DNA of 39,239 bases from a virus (lineage: Duplodnaviria; Heunggongvirae; Uroviricota; Caudoviricetes), in the IMG/VR virus record IMGVR_UViG_2737471849_000004, positions 1 to 39,239 of that record; one strand, written 5' to 3'. The stretch's first letter is position 1. Each line of letters starts with the position of its first letter. The notes below the pieces were generated by a model. It was not told where the DNA came from and ran no database searches. It saw only the letters and a list, made by a program, of their open reading frames with translations. Below, piece by piece: positions 1 to 39,239 of this stretch. A program made the position numbers and the translations under genes.

Positions 1-1248
1 ATGGCACTGAATATTCCATTCAGAAATGCGTACTATCGTTTTGCATCCAGTTACTCATTTCTCTTTTTTATTTCCTGGTCGCTGTGGTGGTCGTTATACG
101 CTATTTGGCTGAAAGGACATCTAGGGTTGACAGGGACGGAATTAGGTACACTTTATTCGGTCAACCAGTTTACCAGCATTCTATTTATGATGTTCTACGG
201 CATCGTTCAGGATAAACTCGGTCTGAAGAAACCGCTCATCTGGTGTATGAGTTTCATCCTGGTCTTGACCGGACCGTTTATGATTTACGTTTATGAACCG
301 TTACTGCAAAGCAATTTTTCTGTAGGTCTAATTCTGGGGGCGCTATTTTTTGGCTTGGGGTATCTGGCGGGATGCGGTTTGCTTGATAGCTTCACCGAAA
401 AAATGGCGCGAAATTTTCATTTCGAATATGGAACAGCGCGCGCCTGGGGATCTTTTGGCTATGCTATTGGCGCGTTCTTTGCCGGCATATTTTTTAGTAT
501 CAGTCCCCATATCAACTTCTGGTTGGTCTCGCTATTTGGCGCTGTATTTATGATGATCAACATGCGTTTTAAAGATAAGGATCACCAGTGCGTAGCGGCA
601 GATGCGGGAGGGGTAAAAAAAGAGGATTTTATCGCAGTTTTCAAGGATCGAAACTTCTGGGTTTTCGTCATATTTATTGTGGGGACGTGGTCTTTCTATA
701 ACATTTTTGATCAACAACTTTTTCCTGTCTTTTATTCAGGTTTATTCGAATCACACGATGTAGGAACGCGCCTGTATGGTTATCTCAACTCATTCCAGGT
801 GGTACTCGAAGCGCTGTGCATGGCGATTATTCCTTTCTTTGTGAATCGGGTAGGGCCAAAAAATGCATTACTTATCGGAGTTGTGATTATGGCGTTGCGT
901 ATCCTTTCCTGCGCGCTGTTCGTTAACCCCTGGATTATTTCATTAGTGAAGTTGTTACATGCCATTGAGGTTCCACTTTGTGTCATATCCGTCTTCAAAT
1001 ACAGCGTGGCAAACTTTGATAAGCGCCTGTCGTCGACGATCTTTCTGATTGGTTTTCAAATTGCCAGTTCGCTTGGGATTGTGCTGCTTTCAACGCCGAC
1101 TGGGATACTCTTTGACCACGCAGGCTACCAAACAGTTTTCTTCGCAATTTCGGGTATTGTCTGCCTGATGTTGCTATTTGGCATTTTCTTCTTGAGTAAA
1201 AAACGCGAGCAAATAGTTATGGAAACGCCTGTACCTTCAGCAATATAG
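1..1248 (+). CDS. cscB: MFS oligosaccharide:H+ symporter, sucrose permease CscB-like (host gene)
   Basis: 415-aa ORF with many hydrophobic segments and a LacY-family loop motif (GIVQDKLGLKKP); N-terminus MALNIPFRNAYYRF matches my recollection of E. coli CscB. Confidence 0.7.
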   Translation: MALNIPFRNAYYRFASSYSFLFFISWSLWWSLYAIWLKGHLGLTGTELGTLYSVNQFTSILFMMFYGIVQDKLGLKKPLIWCMSFILVLTGPFMIYVYEPLLQSNFSVGLILGALFFGLGYLAGCGLLDSFTEKMARNFHFEYGTARAWGSFGYAIGAFFAGIFFSISPHINFWLVSLFGAVFMMINMRFKDKDHQCVAADAGGVKKEDFIAVFKDRNFWVFVIFIVGTWSFYNIFDQQLFPVFYSGLFESHDVGTRLYGYLNSFQVVLEALCMAIIPFFVNRVGPKNALLIGVVIMALRILSCALFVNPWIISLVKLLHAIEVPLCVISVFKYSVANFDKRLSSTIFLIGFQIASSLGIVLLSTPTGILFDHAGYQTVFFAISGIVCLMLLFGIFFLSKKREQIVMETPVPSAI

Positions 1249-2640: not shown

Positions 2641-3161
2641 CACTTCACCTCCTGCGGCGGTTCTGGTAGAGGCATCCAGTGAGTTACGTCATCCAAGATA
2701 TTTCCTGATAAATACGTGAAAGCTCTATATTTTTTGTAATCAATTGGATTTACAACCCAGTTCCAATATGCGGCCACGATTTCACCTTGACTAAATGCCA
2801 GTAACATTTTGGTGTCTTCCGGAATTCGATCACTACAGCTTATCCAACCATCCGGAGTTACCGCCACTGGCTTGGCGGTATAAAGCGGTGTTATATCTGC
2901 CCGAAAATTACATGCTTTATGCAGCCGCACCCACCGTTCGACTTCTGCTTTGTCAGAATACATACCAGTGAACGTGTTATATTCACGGTCAATTTGCGTG
3001 AATGTTACCTTCCACGCCACCGGCTCTGCTCCCAGTGATGCCAGAGCAATTCGTGCCAGTTCTTCCGCTTCTTCTGCTGGCAGTACAACGTTGCTACCAG
3101 GTCCGTATGTTTCGCGCCACTGCTTGATTGTCAGCAGTCGCTCTTTGGTAATAGTGATCAT
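2640..3161 (-). CDS. Phage early protein, DUF551-like
   Basis: 173 aa; C-terminal WMPLPEPP resembles DUF551 phage proteins; ATGA overlap with upstream gene. Confidence 0.5.
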   Translation of the reverse strand: MITITKERLLTIKQWRETYGPGSNVVLPAEEAEELARIALASLGAEPVAWKVTFTQIDREYNTFTGMYSDKAEVERWVRLHKACNFRADITPLYTAKPVAVTPDGWISCSDRIPEDTKMLLAFSQGEIVAAYWNWVVNPIDYKKYRAFTYLSGNILDDVTHWMPLPEPPQEVK

Positions 3162-3673
3162 GCCGCGTTTCCTTCTTTCTTATTAACAATTACACCGTCA
3201 TATATTTCATTAAGGTGCCCTCTCAACTCCATGCGCCTTAATGCAGATAACATGTAATCGCATTCAACCTGCTTATTTCCAGTAAATGGCTTATCGTCAG
3301 GATTACCCCAACAGCAATTACCCTTGGGCCACCCATGTACTTTCCGTACTCTTCCGTTAACAACGTGAAGTAATCCCCAGCCAGGTGGTAAATCCTCAAT
3401 TGAAATAATTCCCGGCTCACTAATAAAGAATCGCCAGTCGCCCATTCCAAGAGACGGATTTTTACGAAAACGCTTTTTTCTATCTGCTAACAAGTCAGCA
3501 CGAGAACACTTCGCTTCTATCAGGCATGATGCTGAATTTCTGAATCCCATAGCATCTGGCTGTTCTCCGGTACTGGTTACAGCTATAAAGCGGTCATGAA
3601 AACAAACCTTGAACCCGTTGCGCTTAAGGAACTTATACGCAATCTGACAGAGTTCACGGTGTGTTAACGCCAT
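3158..3673 (-). CDS. Hypothetical protein with PD-(D/E)xK nuclease-like motif
   Basis: Internal start MALTHREL in track ORF 3158..3745; motif GEQPDAMGF...CLIEAKCS fits the D...ExK signature (MmcB-like). Confidence 0.45.
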   Translation of the reverse strand: MALTHRELCQIAYKFLKRNGFKVCFHDRFIAVTSTGEQPDAMGFRNSASCLIEAKCSRADLLADRKKRFRKNPSLGMGDWRFFISEPGIISIEDLPPGWGLLHVVNGRVRKVHGWPKGNCCWGNPDDKPFTGNKQVECDYMLSALRRMELRGHLNEIYDGVIVNKKEGNAA

Positions 3674-3674
3674 A

Positions 3675-3863
3675 TCACTCTCCTTTAGTGCGCAAGTGGT
3701 TTTTCCAGCGGTTTTGCGCCGCGCTGGGCTTTTTGCAAAAACCACAATCCATCATCCCGTAATATTTCATCAACCCCATCCGTCGGTTGCTGAGTCTCAC
3801 CCACTGCCAGACGCCAGGAGCGTTTCTACGAACTAACAGAATCTTTGCTTTACGGTTTTTCAT
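3675..3863 (-). CDS. Hypothetical small basic protein (62 aa)
   Basis: Track ORF; start and stop overlap the neighbouring ORFs in ATGA fashion; no recognisable domain. Confidence 0.3.
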   Translation of the reverse strand: MKNRKAKILLVRRNAPGVWQWVRLSNRRMGLMKYYGMMDCGFCKKPSAAQNRWKNHLRTKGE

Positions 3864-4036
3864 CGTTTTGCTCTCCTGCGTTTCTTTGCTTCGCGTCGTG
3901 CAGCCGCAATACCGGTATGGCGGCGCTTTGGTGCCGGGATGATGTTGTCAGCCATCAGGACATGCGGCTTCGCAATTAGCGCAGAAGCCCAAAAACGATT
4001 CGGGTACGGTAACAAGCCGATACATGCCACACGCAT
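3860..4036 (-). CDS. Hypothetical small protein (57 aa)
   Basis: Hand-translated; start overlaps the stop of the Ea22-like gene (TAATG) and its stop overlaps the next ATG. Confidence 0.25.
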   Translation of the reverse strand: MRVACIGLLPYPNRFWASALIAKPHVLMADNIIPAPKRRHTGIAAARREAKKRRRAKR

Positions 4037-4603
4037 TACTCACCTCCTTTGATGCGAATGCCAGCGTCAGACATCATATGCAGATACTCAACTGCATCCT
4101 GAACCCATTGACCGCCAATCCCGTAATAGCGATGCGTAATGATGTCGATAGTTACTAACGGGTCTTGTTCGATTAACTTCCGCAGAAACTCTTCCAGGTC
4201 ACCAATGCAGTGCTTGATGACAGGAGTTTTCCCAGGATGGCGAACAACAAGAAACTGATTTCCGACTTCACGGACTTCGTTGCTTTCCAGTTCTGCAATG
4301 CGCTTCTCTGCGGCTTCCAGCTCAACTCTCAGCTTCCCTACCGTTAGCGCAATATCCTCGTTCTCCTGATCGCGGCTTTTGATGTACTGCTGGTTTCTTT
4401 CCCGTTCATCCAGCAGTTCCAGCACGGTTTCTGGTCCGGTCAGAAATTTGAAGGCGTTGAGCGCATCAATATCCACACCGTAATCTTTAAGTTCCTGTTC
4501 ACTTAACAAATCATCATCAACTGGCAACATTAACAGGCGTTCCATTGCTGGAATTGCACGTTCTGCTGCCTCACGCAGTGCCTGGTAATTAATTTTACTC
4601 ACT
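4036..4603 (-). CDS. Ead/Ea22-like early protein
   Basis: Track ORF 4036..4623; likely GTG start 6 nt after AAAGGAGG giving [16 protein letters not shown]...; coiled-coil middle region. Confidence 0.5.
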
Positions 4604-4767
4604 GGTTGCCTCCTTTGCGCCACATCGCATTCAGATATTTGTTTTGATTCACTGATGGAAAAGAATTTCTCTTAAGCAATTCCTCTCTCGATGGCATTGG
4701 CTTTACGCGTTGGCGAATAATCATTTCTGCTGGAAGAATGCCGGGATTGTATACAAGTCCTCTCATG
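4600..4767 (-). CDS. Hypothetical small protein (55 aa)
   Basis: Hand-translated [41 protein letters not shown]...; stop overlaps the start of the Ea22-like gene. Confidence 0.25.
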
Positions 4768-4782
4768 GTGAATTCCTCTTTG

Positions 4783-5097
4783 TTAATTTATTCGTATGCC
4801 TGCTCTTTCTTCATCGAGTTTTTTTAGCTTGTATCGCATAGCTCTTACTGAATAAATTGAGCGGCAGGTTGCAATTGCTATTTCTTCTGCGGAGAACTTA
4901 CCGAAAAGTGATACTTCGGCTCTTGTCCAGCGTCTTCCACGAAGTCGGCTAACAATGTCAGCGCCAATCCTTGTTGCTTTCGCCATTACTGCTTTTTCAG
5001 TCCTTTCCAGTTTTTCAGCGATAACTTCAACTGGCATTGTCGCCGCCACTTCGCGCAAGAAATCGACTTCCCATTTCTCCCATGGAGTCTTTTTCAT
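4783..5097 (-). CDS. Hypothetical protein with two tandem W-x3-E repeats (possible DNA-binding)
   Basis: 104 aa; two internal repeats ([14 protein letters not shown]... and [14 protein letters not shown]...). Confidence 0.45.
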
Positions 5098-5108
5098 AGG
5101 CGATACCG

Positions 5109-16007: not shown

Positions 16008-16082
16008 GGGTCAGTCGTATAAAGGTCATTACGGAAGGCTGTTAACCTTCTTATCGTGGTTCGAGTCCACGCTGTCCCGCCA
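16008..16082 (+). tRNA. tRNA-like gene, anticodon GUU (Asn), CCA encoded
   Basis: Manual cloverleaf: acceptor gggtcag/ctgtccc with one mismatch, anticodon stem gaagg/ccttc, loop ctGTTaa, T-arm cgtgg-ttcgagt-ccacg, 3' GCCA. Confidence 0.55.
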
Positions 16083-16087
16083 AACAT

Positions 16088-16163
16088 GCTGGTTTAGCTC
16101 CAATGGTAGAGCAGTCGCCTTGTAAGCGAATGGGTAGCGGTTCAAGTCCGTTAACCAGCACCA
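16088..16163 (+). tRNA. tRNA-like gene, anticodon UGU (Thr), CCA encoded
   Basis: Manual cloverleaf: acceptor gctggtt/aaccagc perfect, D-arm gctc...gagc, loop ctTGTaa, T-loop ttcaagt, 3' ACCA. Confidence 0.6.
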
Positions 16164-17623: not shown

Positions 17624-18062
17624 TAGCGATAATTCTACTCATCATCCTTCACATCTGGCTCTGTAGACAGGGTGGTGATCACTTCTGGAGTGAATCCAGA
17701 TTAAACATCTCATTGCTGATGCTTGAAGTTAAGCATATGGCGCGCGGCAAGGGGCTGCGTTGAGATAAGAGCCAGTTCATTACAAAGCCTATCTACGGGT
17801 GGGCTTGATAATGAAACCGGAATTTATTCTGGGTAACCAGTTACGGCAGTACAGCGAAACAACCCAAGCCAGAAAGTGGGGAAATAACACTGGCAGCCAC
17901 TGAAAGATGAACCTCCAGCCTTATGGCAAAAAAGATTCTTTGTGGTGGCGGACTGATGGAAAGACATCGGATAGAATAAAACAGTGGCTAGGGTAGCTGC
18001 CGAAAAGCGGAATCGTCACCGCCTGCCACTGAATCTATGACGAACAACTAGACGAGGTTGTG

Positions 18063-36014: not shown

Positions 36015-36188
36015 ATGATAGTCAAGTCAGACGCACCAAAGTACCCTTTGCGCATCCCATTAGAGGTTAAGTTAGCAATCGAGAAGTCAGCGAAAGAAAA
36101 TGGTCGCTCAATAAATACCGAGATGGTAATGCGGTTAGTGGATAGTTTAAGGCGGGATAGTTCTAAAGGTAATCTAGCAAAAAGTTGA
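36015..36188 (+). CDS. arc: Arc-like ribbon-helix-helix repressor
   Basis: 57 aa from the ATG after GGAGG; [35 protein letters not shown] resembles P22 Arc. Confidence 0.7.
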
Positions 36189-36250
36189 AGCCCCAACTGC
36201 GGGAACAGTCAGGGCTTCGGTATCAACAAATCGGATTAGGAAATATTGAC

Positions 36251-37129: not shown

Positions 37130-37148
37130 CAGATAACCAACGCAACGA

Positions 37149-37171
37149 CCCAGCTTCGGCTGGGTTTTTTT
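37149..37171 (+). terminator. Intrinsic terminator after ant
   Basis: Hairpin cccagc-ttcg-gctggg followed by ttttttt. Confidence 0.8.
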
Positions 37172-37229: not shown

Positions 37230-39239
37230 ATGACAGACATTACAGCCAATGTGATCATATCAATGCCTTCGCAACTCTTCACTATGGCGCGTTCTTTTAA
37301 AGCCGTAGCCAATGGCGAAATTTATATCGGTAAAATTGACACTGACCCGGTAAACCCTGAAAACCAGATTCAGGTTTATGTGGAGAACGAAGACGGCTCT
37401 CACGTTCCTGTTTCGCAACCAATCATCATTAACGCTGCTGGTTACCCTGTATATAACGGACAGATTGCCAAGTTCGTAACTGTGCAAGGCCATTCTATGG
37501 CTGTTTATGATGCGTATGGTTCTCAGCAATTCTATTTTCCTAATGTGCTGAAGTATGACCCTGATCAGTTAAGACAGGAGCTTGCTGCACCTGGTGGTGT
37601 GGATTTAGTAAATGGGGCCGCAAAGCAGACTGATATAGACACCCTTAATAAGCGTACTGATGTCTATGCTTACATCGAAGATTATGAAAATCTTGTTGTT
37701 GATGATGACTGGTCAGACGCCATTCAGGCAGCATTTGATACTGGCAAAGAAATCATAGGGATCAAGGGTAAGAAGTATAAAGTTACTAAAATCATAAATA
37801 CTAAAGGGCAAAGATATGTTGGAGAACTAACTTTAGATCTGCAAAGAATAAGCATACCAAATGCTGTTGTTACCTCAAATTATGCTAAGCCTGATAATGC
37901 TTTTTTCCGAGGCATATACGTAGGGACAGCATACGATTTTTGCGAAATGTTGAGAATAAAGTCCTTGGGGTTTAATACCGTTATTCATTACTGCTATTTT
38001 GATAATAATGGTACTGTCGACATGGACGGAACCATGACCAAGCTTCTCAATAATTGCCTATCTGCTGGATTGAACGTGGTTATTAATACAAATATTGAAT
38101 CTAGTCATGGTCAAGGAACTGTTGCAGAGATTGTTGGTCGGTGTGACAGTTTTTCAAACTGCATTGGATATAGCGTAGTTGACGAACCAGCCAGTAGAGG
38201 AATCAGCGTTGCCGATCAGGACCAAATGATTGCAACACTGAGAGAACTTACGAATAAAAAGCTTTTTTCAGTAGATTACATGTGGGTCAACTCTCCTTGG
38301 GAATATAAATTCTCAAGGAATTATGACGTTTTTCTTGTCAATAGCTACAGCATGTACTATTCATCAGGCTCTCTTCAAGAGAGGGTTGATAAAGATCTTG
38401 GAAAAATGAGGACTGATATTGGTGGATGCATGATGGTAACTGGTTCTGCGCGAATCATTCCTGTCGTGCAAACTTTTTCTCAATTCGAAACAAATCCAGT
38501 GGAGGGTATAAATGGGTCATATTGTTTTGATGTTGATCAGATTGTATCTGCCGCCCGAGTTTTCGGAAAAACAGGCAATGGAGATTTCGCAGCATTCTGC
38601 TGGGACAATGGCTTCACCACTACGCTCGCAAAAGAAGTAAAGTACCAAACCTTAGTAAAAGAACTTGTAAATCATGCTGATAAAGGTGAAATCTATAGAA
38701 CCGAGCCTATTCTATTTGGAGGGGTTGGAGGATATCCAGGACGGGTTCAATACCCTTTGGGGTGCTTAAATGTTATACAAACATATAAAGATCCCCTTAA
38801 TACAATTGATAATTGGCTTGGTGGAGGCGCAGCTCCTGTAAGATTAATGACCGGGTCGTCAGAAACCCCACTGAGAACAACACTACCTGGAGTCGACACA
38901 TCTGGAATAGGTTTTAATAAGACATTTAGCAGACTTGTTACAACTAAAAGTTTATTAAAATATTTCACTGGATTCGCAGTATTTGAGAATTATGGGAATC
39001 CCTTACTAAAACCAGCATCATTTGAAGTGTACTCAACTACAGATGGTGGTTATACAGAAGCCCTTAGATATACTACAGGAGTAACTGCCGGGTCTTCATT
39101 TAGGTTTTCAGGCCTCATGACCAATAGCTATGATGGTATAGGTGATTGCGCCGTATTCGCACTATCAGTAGATCCAAGTGATGCACTGGATAATTATAGA
39201 CGGATTATATATGGATTATTTATAAGTACAAACTGGTAA
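37230..39239 (+). CDS. Tailspike: P22 gp9-like head-binding domain fused to a non-P22 receptor-binding/enzymatic domain
   Basis: 669 aa; first ~110 aa ([17 protein letters not shown]...[25 protein letters not shown]...VLKYDPDQ) match the P22-family head-binding domain; the rest is AT-richer and unlike P22 gp9. Confidence 0.85.

Follow-up and report, generated by a model that had tools for sequence, protein, structure and literature searches.

The last gene of the analysed DNA (39,239 nt, referred to as the window) encodes a tailspike that is chimeric at the DNA level. It joins a P22-family virion-attachment domain to a domain predicted to be a rare, barrel-shaped sugar-cutting module. The protein is probably an O-antigen endoglycosidase of a P22-like temperate phage, assembled as a three-piece mosaic, with the E. 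coli O4 O-antigen as its most likely substrate. Tailspike receptor-binding domains set the host range of phages, and engineered phages, enzyme therapeutics and reagents for serotyping are built from them. Serogroup O4, frequent among extraintestinal pathogenic E. coli, is absent from the published E. coli serogroup-to-tailspike map (PMC10408124). TIM barrels constitute about 1% of the recognised phage depolymerase folds, none of these TIM-barrel spikes having a structure solved so far (PMC11326577), and a TIM-barrel spike would extend the structural repertoire of P22-like phages past the beta-helix.

The tailspike ORF begins with ATG, preceded by GGAG 10 nt upstream, and its stop is the final codon of the window. 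The upstream region is a P22-type immI region consisting of an mnt/arc-like gene, arc, ant and the sar RNA; two Arc-family genes are present, and ant contains Bro-N and P22_AR_C domains. The hairpin that follows ant occupies the position of the terminator that the HK620 annotation names tANT and, judging from its sequence, probably acts as a terminator. The exact carrier of the window is GCA_000819265.1. Homologues of P22 gp7, gp20 and gp16 are found on the source contig, and the phage genome matches Kapi1, CUS-3 and HK620 in blocks at 97% identity. By its position, beyond the genes for the ejection proteins and beyond immI, the gene belongs with the P22-like (Lederbergvirus) tailspikes. Those of P22, Sf6, HK620 and CUS-3 occupy the same place, closing the late operon after immI, and seroconversion genes lie downstream of them, as they do here.

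Table 1. Features of the tailspike gene and its upstream region (window positions).
Feature	Position	Strand	Evidence or remark
sar RNA, RF00262	36183-36249	minus	71.6 bits
Terminator-like hairpin, then T-run	37147..37166	+	Between ant and the tailspike gene; pattern scan and direct reading
Tailspike gene	37230..39239	+	Single ORF, 669 codons + stop
Head-binding (virion attachment) domain, aa 1-113	37230..37568	+	PF09008 match
Recombination junction 1, codons DPDQLRQE/LAAPGG	37574..37581	+	P22-like similarity stops, TIM-barrel module similarity starts
Linker and helix, aa 118-145	37581..37664	+	Alignment consensus; helix 133-145 in models
Small alpha/beta domain before the barrel, aa 146-217	37665..37880	+	AlphaFold2 model, pLDDT above 90
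Recombination junction 2, past invariant INTKGQ, about aa 193-195	37800..37829	+	Gene nt ~575-585
(beta/alpha)8 barrel, aa 227-485, putative catalytic domain	37908..38684	+	
Codons D318-E319-P320, C-terminal end of barrel strand beta4	38181..38189	+	Invariant in 42/42 homologues
C-terminal beta-sandwich, aa 489-669, CBM-like	38694..39236	+	Model

The N-terminal domain matches the whole Pfam profile PF09008 (Head_binding, 1-113 of 113) with an E-value of 2.5e-65 and is identical to Sf6 gp14 at 105/113 and to P22 gp9 at 85/113 positions. The alignments to the PDB entries 7sg7 (Sf6) and 8tvr/2xc1 (P22) are confined to aa 1-118. In the full-length AlphaFold2 prediction, which like all our structure models is a monomer, this domain has pLDDT values below 50.

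The similarity to P22-like phages ends abruptly at the DNA level. A megablast search of 50,697 phage records matched 31 P22-like phages, with all matches ending at gene nt 338-351. Past nt ~345-350 no characterised P22-like tailspike in these records aligns, so the C-terminal part has no full-length counterpart of known specificity among them. Upstream of nt ~345-352 the identity to the tailspike genes of CUS-3, HZ41 and HK620 is 93-95%; in 30-nt windows that to CUS-3 drops from 27-29/30 to 10/30 past nt ~345. Downstream of nt 352 the gene matches a tail spike of the Enterobacter cloacae complex (locus L033) with 86.3% identity over 1.6 kb by blastn. The match begins at nt 352, and the Enterobacter protein carries another anchor, PF18668. 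Lederbergvirus tailspikes follow the same modular logic: their head-binding domain is common (75-93% identity) and the recombination boundary lies directly past YDPDQ. These results bear out the initial annotation, which took the first ~110 residues for the P22-family head-binding domain and proposed a domain exchange behind it.

The receptor-binding part is modelled as a glycoside-hydrolase-like (beta/alpha)8 barrel followed by a CBM-like beta-sandwich. The linker and helix that precede them are conserved across the module family regardless of the N-terminal anchor, and possibly form a trimeric neck. Foldseek finds local matches of the beta-sandwich to CBM4 (3p6b) and CBM22 (4xup), and the terminal W669 is kept in at least 90% of family sequences. 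The tailspikes of P22, Sf6 and HK620 are right-handed beta-helices and the endosialidase tailspike of CUS-3 is a beta-propeller, in contrast to the barrel and sandwich predicted here. No beta-helix of the P22 gp9 type (gp9 residues ~125-666) was found in the sequence alignment, which ends at residue 118, or in the model. The suggestion that this part differs from the P22 endorhamnosidase and could be a different glycan-degrading fold thus agrees with the structure prediction. The alternating beta/alpha elements of the model are those of a TIM barrel.

The module has no Pfam match in any of 42 homologues and no NCBIfam match. Searches of all PDB chains with the barrel alone (phmmer) and with the family profile returned nothing significant, the best hit being beta-glucuronidase (E 0.012). 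The family is small, with 122 cluster representatives among 1.84 billion, and occurs in phages of E. coli, Enterobacter, Pantoea, Dickeya and Acinetobacter. A scan of species-representative genomes turned up no more than two loci, one in Scandinavium and one in Acinetobacter nosocomialis, and is of little use for the distribution. At least three virion anchors are fused to the module (PF09008, PF18668 and PF03906), which by sequence comparison makes it an exchangeable receptor-binding unit. Tail spikes of Enterobacter, Pantoea and Dickeya (pro)phages (for example P0012/P0013 and Dickeya phage Monomax) contain the same module from the linker to the C-terminal Trp, with up to 92% amino-acid and 86.3% DNA identity in Enterobacter. 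Their anchors, PF18668 or PF03906, and their host genera differ from those of the window's spike; the different virion-attachment domains imply different tail architectures.

More distant homologues are the TIM-barrel tailspike depolymerases of the Acinetobacter phages vB_AbaP_46-62_Aci07, Bestia (gp53), APK26 (gp48) and AB3P2. A tblastn search with the module matches Bestia, IME284 and Aci07 with E-values of 2e-31 to 3e-35 over 87-93% of its length. In a Foldseek search of the BFVD viral structures the Aci07 depolymerase scores E 2.6e-46 and TMq 0.80 (TM-score normalised to the query). The layout of anchor, barrel and beta-sandwich is shared, while the sequences are 26-29% identical, the anchors are T7-like or of myovirus type, the hosts differ and the substrate is a capsule (K26). 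Depolymerase activity and K26 specificity have been reported for these spikes (PMC11823257, PMC11126041); for none of them has the structure been solved or the catalytic residues been mapped.

A second junction lies within the module. Compared with an E. coli allele (allele D, P0043), the window's allele (A) is identical at 28-30/30 positions per 30-nt window up to nt 570, after which the values fall to 20, 11, 12 and 8. The two alleles are near-identical before the junction and unrelated after it. For the 160-11H1 allele the similarity decays at nt 510-580.

Taken together, the two junctions suggest a spike of three pieces. The conserved head-binding domain (aa 1-117) would plug the spike into the tail machine. 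The second piece (aa 118-193) would comprise the linker and neck specific to the exchangeable module family, and the third (aa 194-669) would be allele-specific, consisting of the end of the small domain, the barrel and the CBM-like sandwich. The spike may bind the host O-antigen and cleave it as an endoglycosidase, allowing the virion to descend to the outer membrane as with the spikes of P22, Sf6 and HK620. Recombination at the conserved junction motifs would exchange the specificity part between phages with different tails, and the sharp junctions could serve as ready splice points for exchanging specificities between phage chassis.

The proposal that the exchange retargets the phage to another O-antigen or capsule gains support from two correlations in lysogens. 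The first is the distribution of the window's module in complete E. coli genomes. It is present in 15 of 5426, all 15 of which fall among the 36 with a full-length O4 wzy and none in other serogroups. Assuming independent genomes, the hypergeometric probability is 7e-35. In 12 of the 15 the module is one and the same IS3-truncated remnant, and these genomes probably have a clonal relationship. Independent insertion contexts number at least 3-4, at the bio locus, at dacD (once with gtr, once with a membrane protein) and at argW. The genomes come from pig faeces, food, human urine, poultry and dog, and contain two wzy variants (98.7-100%). The second correlation concerns the genes directly downstream of the spike. 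In one arrangement gtrB and gtrA accompany a gene for a GtrC-like glucosyltransferase (phrog_19534, E 7.8e-53); in the other, a polytopic membrane protein of 374 aa is encoded. From their sequences these are O-antigen modifiers, and their placement is the classical one for P22-like phages specific for the O-antigen. The most likely substrate would accordingly be the O4 O-antigen.

It is unlikely, though conceivable, that the O4 link reflects coincidence or history and that the spike is specific for another O-antigen, or a sub-variant, sharing sugars with O4. Prophages often modify the O-antigen that serves as their own receptor, and the receptor may differ from the surface that a lysogen presently displays. 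An O177 strain, in whose O-cluster L-Rha and L-FucNAc synthesis is likewise encoded, has a fifth allele of the module family. Furthermore, O4 genomes contain four divergent alleles with 36-53% identity; given this divergence, a common epitope can be recognised by some of them at most. Against this explanation stands the co-occurrence itself, with 15/15 module genomes in O4 against a background of 36/5426 and no copy in another serogroup among them.

Alternatively, the target of the module may be capsular material, colanic acid or some other exopolysaccharide, and the O4 link would then follow from host lineage. A capsule is present in many O4 UPEC strains. The characterised relatives, which are limited to Acinetobacter APK26 gp48 and Bestia gp53, act on capsule (PMC11126041). 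The best PHROG match of the whole protein, phrog_8280, is named 'tail spike protein with colanic acid degradation activity'; this lead was dropped, the match resting on the N-terminal part, with aa 121-669 alone matching no PHROG. However, the O4 carriers are from unrelated sources, with two wzy variants and four insertion contexts, and the adjoining gtrABC genes modify the O-antigen. We regard a capsule or exopolysaccharide substrate as improbable and continue with O4 cleavage as the preferred reading.

If the spike cleaves the O4 O-antigen, the TIM barrel would provide the catalytic scaffold in place of the beta-helix. The C-terminal face of the barrel contains the conserved residues D236, H253/Y254, D318-E319, D349, Y373 and W458-D459. 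Against E. coli beta-glucuronidase, the family profile places the motif YSVyDEP opposite WSIANEP, although not significantly (E 0.012). The Glu aligned with E319 is the acid/base E413 of beta-glucuronidase (GUS), making E319, at the end of beta4, a candidate general acid/base.

The model matches the barrel fold of clan GH-A glycoside hydrolases (GH5, GH42, GH164, GH2 and GH35), but the module differs from them in several respects. It has Asp instead of Asn before the Glu of the clan's N-E-P motif, shows no significant sequence similarity to the clan (best E 0.012), and falls in no Pfam family. The nucleophile Glu that clan GH-A enzymes carry at the end of beta7 is absent, with Q414 in its place here and Q, A, S or G in homologues. 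Between aa 396 and 459 no acidic residue is conserved at 85% or more of the family. In hexosaminidases of the GH20, GH123 and GH18 types, an adjacent Asp-Glu pair closes TIM-barrel strand beta4 and the enzyme provides no nucleophile. The Asp-Glu pair and the absent nucleophile of the module resemble these substrate-assisted enzymes at the level of mechanism, and we claim no family membership.

A more detailed reading, which we offer as a speculative one with the odds against it, is that the module is an unclassified GH family known only from phage receptor-binding proteins. Its GH-A-like barrel would have lost the beta7 nucleophile and adopted substrate-assisted catalysis, with D318 polarising the 2-acetamido group and E319 acting as acid/base, and would cut the beta-D-GlcNAc linkage between O4 repeat units. 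The repeat-unit structure behind this idea is reportedly that described by Jansson in 1984 and Jann in 1993. If this is true, the four O4-confined alleles, each linked to its own O-antigen-modifying gene, would be the trace of an arms race within one serogroup that sets tailspikes against seroconverting prophages. The absent canonical nucleophile makes the putative enzyme of mechanistic interest.

The missing beta7 Glu could also mean that the barrel is catalytically dead and lectin-like, so that the spike binds without cleaving. We find this very unlikely: D318-E319-P320, Y373 and W458-D459 are invariant in 42 sequences that are otherwise 31-98% identical, and families with substrate-assisted catalysis likewise have no enzyme nucleophile. 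In addition, the related spikes of Acinetobacter phages are capsule depolymerases (PMC11823257). A highly diverged P22-type beta-helix endorhamnosidase, hinted at just by a superficial D-W-S-D-A-I-Q-A-A motif (aa 159-167) resembling the start of pectate-lyase-like spikes, is refuted at the level of structure prediction and can be dismissed almost with certainty.

The base composition changes together with the domains. The head-binding part has a GC content of 0.434 (GC3 0.434) and aa 114-669 of 0.395 (GC3 0.306), in a window of 0.469 with virion genes at 0.50-0.53. The AT-rich character reported in the initial annotation is therefore real but moderate, while its origin from a lower-GC source cannot be shown: module GC ranges from 0.38 to 0.48 with no consistent tracking of host or phage, and no donor can be named. 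The module is AT-rich against its surroundings in most hosts, as in Enterobacter (0.418 against flanks of 0.519), but not in low-GC phages, so low GC looks like a trait of the circulating module.

Sequence comparison and a predicted structure support a chimeric P22-type tailspike, in which the receptor-binding part has been swapped for an unrelated, putatively glycan-degrading fold. The start codon of the gene is an ATG preceded by GGAG 10 nt upstream. Residues 1-113 cover the whole Pfam model PF09008 (Head_binding, E 2.5e-65), confirming the P22-family head-binding domain of about 110 residues proposed in the initial annotation; the domain shares 105/113 residues with Sf6 and 85/113 with P22. 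The solved structures that align (Sf6 gp14, P22 gp9 and related chains) do so over residues 1-118 only. In a megablast search of 50,697 phage records, 31 P22-like phages, including HZ41, CUS-3, HK620 and Sf6, match the gene, and all of these matches end at gene nt 338-351. Neither these records nor the solved structures contain a characterised P22-like tailspike that aligns with the C-terminal part, over its full length or otherwise, consistent with the non-P22 origin suggested for it.

The borders of the exchanged pieces can be located. Compared with CUS-3 in 30-nt windows, the gene retains 27-29/30 identities to nt ~330, falls to 20/30 across nt 331-360 and stays near 10/30 beyond. A blastn alignment with a PF18668-anchored spike of the Enterobacter cloacae complex runs from nt 352 to nt 1985, where the contig of that spike ends, at 86.3% identity. 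The drop in identity to CUS-3 and the start of the Enterobacter match place the first junction at window 37574-37581, within the codons for DPDQLRQE|LAAPGG, and support the domain exchange postulated earlier. The second junction directly follows an invariant INTKGQ motif. P0043, an E. coli protein carrying the divergent allele D, matches the gene of the window (allele A) at 28-30/30 up to nt 570 and is unrelated past about nt 585. The gene is a three-piece mosaic.

An AlphaFold2 model of residues 110-669, based on an alignment of 42 homologues (mean pLDDT 90.5, pTM 0.87), predicts eight beta/alpha repeats followed by a beta-sandwich (Table). Foldseek matches the model to a GH5 mannanase with CBM (E 6.5e-10), GH27, GH51 and GH66, and the sandwich locally to CBM4 and CBM22. 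The barrel matches include no solved phage tailspike; the sole phage spike listed, CBA120 TSP4 (5w6h), is a weak whole-chain match at rank 28 (E 2.7e-4, TMq 0.23, the TM-score normalised to the query). The model describes the C-terminal part as a TIM-barrel glycosidase-like module, in agreement with the different glycan-degrading fold anticipated by the initial annotation. A beta-helix is ruled out by the barrel model and the Foldseek comparisons. At least 90% of the family, regardless of allele, keep the terminal residue W669 (window 39234-39236; "...STNW" or "...TDW"), suggesting a structural role for the C-terminus. No Pfam family covers the module in any of the 42 homologues, no NCBIfam family matches it, no PHROG matches residues 121-669, and the best PDB chain by sequence has an E-value of 0.012. 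A module with neither curated family nor solved structure merits follow-up.

When conservation across the 42 sequences is mapped onto the model, polar residues that are invariant, or nearly so, fall at the C-terminal ends of strands in the barrel (Table). The barrel profile weakly matches E. coli beta-glucuronidase (E 0.012), aligning "YSVyDEP" with "WSIANEP" and "vnSY" with "LNRY"; we take the beta-glucuronidase residues so aligned to be the acid/base E413 and Y468. E319 would be the general acid/base. At the end of beta7, where GH-A enzymes have their nucleophile, this protein has Q414 and its relatives Q, A, S or G; no conserved acidic residue lies between residues 396 and 459 in the 42 sequences, so the defining GH-A nucleophile is absent. 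This departure from the canonical barrel also deserves attention. In GH20 and GH123 the 2-acetamido group of the substrate acts with the assistance of an enzyme Asp. Speculatively, D318 could assist the 2-acetamido group of the substrate in the role of nucleophile or base, or an Asp of beta5 or beta8 could take that role.

Features of the tailspike, its alleles and its surroundings (window coordinates unless stated)
Feature	Position	Strand	Remark
LacY/CscB-type sugar-proton symporter	1-1248	+	First ORF, complete; Pfam LacY_symp E 1.7e-193
sar antisense RNA	36183-36249	-	Overlaps start of ant; Rfam RF00262, 71.6 bits
Terminator-like hairpin	37147-37166		Upstream of tailspike gene
Tailspike ORF	37230-39239	+	669 codons, single ORF; stop codon is final triplet of window
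374-aa membrane protein	L030 (source contig locus) 10023-11147	-	Directly 3' of tailspike, just past window end
Helix	residues 133-145		AlphaFold2 model
Small alpha/beta domain	residues 146-217		AlphaFold2 model
Eight beta/alpha repeats	residues 227-485		AlphaFold2 model
Beta-sandwich	residues 489-669		AlphaFold2 model
Conserved polar residue	D236		After beta1
Conserved polar residues	H253, Y254		beta2
Conserved motif	D318-E319-P320		beta4
Conserved polar residue	D349		beta5
Conserved polar residue	Y373		beta6
Conserved motif	W458-D459		beta8
Allele B			160-11H1
Allele C			CAU16175, ET151, ET450, ES9
Allele D			CUPF06
CUPF06 tailspike loci	3221203-3223212 and 1408989-1410286		
Fifth allele	L034 (SMN013SH2 locus) 3144-5099		Also strain 20AR1039

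Word-sharing relatives of the module number 83 in a 5.8-billion-protein database, and phmmer, run exhaustively over 1.84 billion cluster representatives, yields only 122 that bear the module at E <=1e-3. It is C-terminal in all 122, mostly in proteins of 500-970 aa, the shorter ones being fragments. The N-termini joined to it vary (PF09008 of P22 type, PF18668 of TSP1/Gp66 type, PF03906 of T7 type, and PF27114), and the module is exchangeable between virion anchors. Relatives occur in Enterobacter (92% amino-acid identity), Pantoea, Escherichia phages TH27 and PE3-1, Dickeya phage Monomax (36%) and, at 26-29%, the Acinetobacter phages Bestia, IME284 and Aci07; APK26 (32.5% over 21% of the query) and AB3P2 (23%) match locally over shorter stretches. 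Among the predicted viral structures of BFVD, the "capsular polysaccharide depolymerase" of Aci07 comes closest (E 2.6e-46, TMq 0.80). The tailspike adds to a known kind: modular spikes are textbook knowledge, and TIM-barrel spikes have been noted before in Acinetobacter phages. A TIM-barrel "transglycosidase" domain tied to depolymerase activity was independently described in Aci07, Bestia, AB3P2 and APK26 (PMC11823257), and TIM barrels make up 10/984 (1.0%) of depolymerase folds in phage proteins (PMC11326577); the type is therefore known but rare. K26 specificity is recorded for APK26 gp48 and Bestia gp53 (PMC11126041).

Within the tailspike gene, GC falls from 0.434 (GC3 0.434) in the head-binding part to 0.395 (GC3 0.306) in residues 114-669, with 0.469 for the whole window and 0.50-0.53 (GC3 0.41-0.57) for the virion genes. 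The shift is moderate but genuine, and the reported AT-richness past the linker holds. A lower-GC donor, also proposed, is not demonstrable: in E. coli and Enterobacter the module has a higher AT content than the DNA around it, whereas in low-GC phages there is no such excess.

Of 5426 complete E. coli genomes, 15 carry the allele-specific part (window 37830-39239). The O4-type wzy is full-length in 36 of the 5426, including all 15 module-bearing ones (hypergeometric P = 7e-35 assuming independent genomes, which these are not), and the module sits in no fewer than three or four distinct insertion contexts. The O4 O-antigen is the likely substrate. PGAP labels wzx and wzy "O4 family" in all three genomes inspected. 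The O4 unit is reportedly Rha-Glc-FucNAc-GlcNAc, to which a Glc branch may be added. The genes of the O4 cluster (rfbBDAC, fnlA/wbjC/wecB and three glycosyltransferases) fit this unit, as does the WbuH note (PMC3789825); Jansson 1984 and Jann 1993, the work said to describe it, are cited in PMC7685785. The published E. coli tailspike-to-serogroup map (PMC10408124) has no O4 association, which makes the exclusive association seen here worth pursuing.

Three of the 15 genomes (CUPF06, LCP17S3_I1 and MFDS1001074) contain the full gene. In the other 12, which are UPEC, APEC and canine isolates, IS3 has truncated the gene to a remnant, set in a degraded P22-like prophage that lies between sbcB and dacD (e.g. 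UPEC132 locus L001, 5724-12253). It comprises a truncated integrase, IS3 (ISSen4-family), a tailspike cut at gene nt ~550 and, adjoining it, a GtrC-like glucosyltransferase gene, gtrB and gtrA; the Glc branch of O4 may stem from this gtr cluster. The GtrC-like protein (phrog_19534 "glucosyltransferase", E 7.8e-53) lies with gtrB and gtrA downstream of the module in some loci, and the 374-aa membrane protein takes this place in others. The genes 3' of the module are O-antigen modifiers or candidates for such a role. A spike with a modifier downstream typifies O-antigen-specific P22-like phages; in HK620, for instance, gene 9 is followed by a gene for O-antigen modification.

Three other alleles, B, C and D, are 36-53% identical past residue 194 and occur only in O4-wzy genomes. 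The O4 strain CUPF06 (NZ_CP182174.1) holds two, A at the bio locus and D at another, the latter followed by an OafA-like acetyltransferase gene. An O177 strain has a fifth allele, with 45% overall identity and "DEA" instead of "DEP", in an intact-looking P22-like prophage at dacD; the O177 and O4 clusters both encode L-Rha and L-FucNAc synthesis genes. The occurrence of several alleles within a single serogroup invites further study, and we hypothesise that an arms race with seroconversion lies behind it.

Judged by its sequence, the window is a P22-like prophage, with blocks ~97% identical to Kapi1, CUS-3 and HK620. Two Arc-family genes, an antirepressor (Bro-N and P22_AR_C) and the sar antisense RNA lie 5' of the tailspike; the overlap of sar with the start of ant confirms a P22-type immI region. 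An identical tailspike protein is encoded on contig JWYX01000013.1 of GCA_000819265.1, where the 374-aa polytopic membrane protein comes next, then an integrase and after it yfdC-like, mlaA and fadL genes, presumably the argW region of the K-12 map. The membrane protein and integrase past the tailspike place the prophage end two genes beyond the window. The membrane protein has about 10 hydrophobic segments and no match in Pfam, NCBIfam or PHROG; its gene appears in the CUPF06 and LCP17S3_I1 annotations as a 314-aa "hypothetical", and it is a candidate O-antigen-modifying (seroconversion) protein. No integrase is found at the symporter (5') end of the window. The symporter gene also occurs in phage records vB_EcoP-683R2 and 611R6, annotated as sucrose permease, and probably belongs to the host flank at argW/csc rather than to the phage. 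An int-alpA sRNA match (41.1 bits) lies mid-genome, distant from any integrase, and the window also carries tandem phage-borne tRNA-Asn(GTT) and tRNA-Thr(TGT) genes, at 16008-16163 (+) and 17981-18043 (+).
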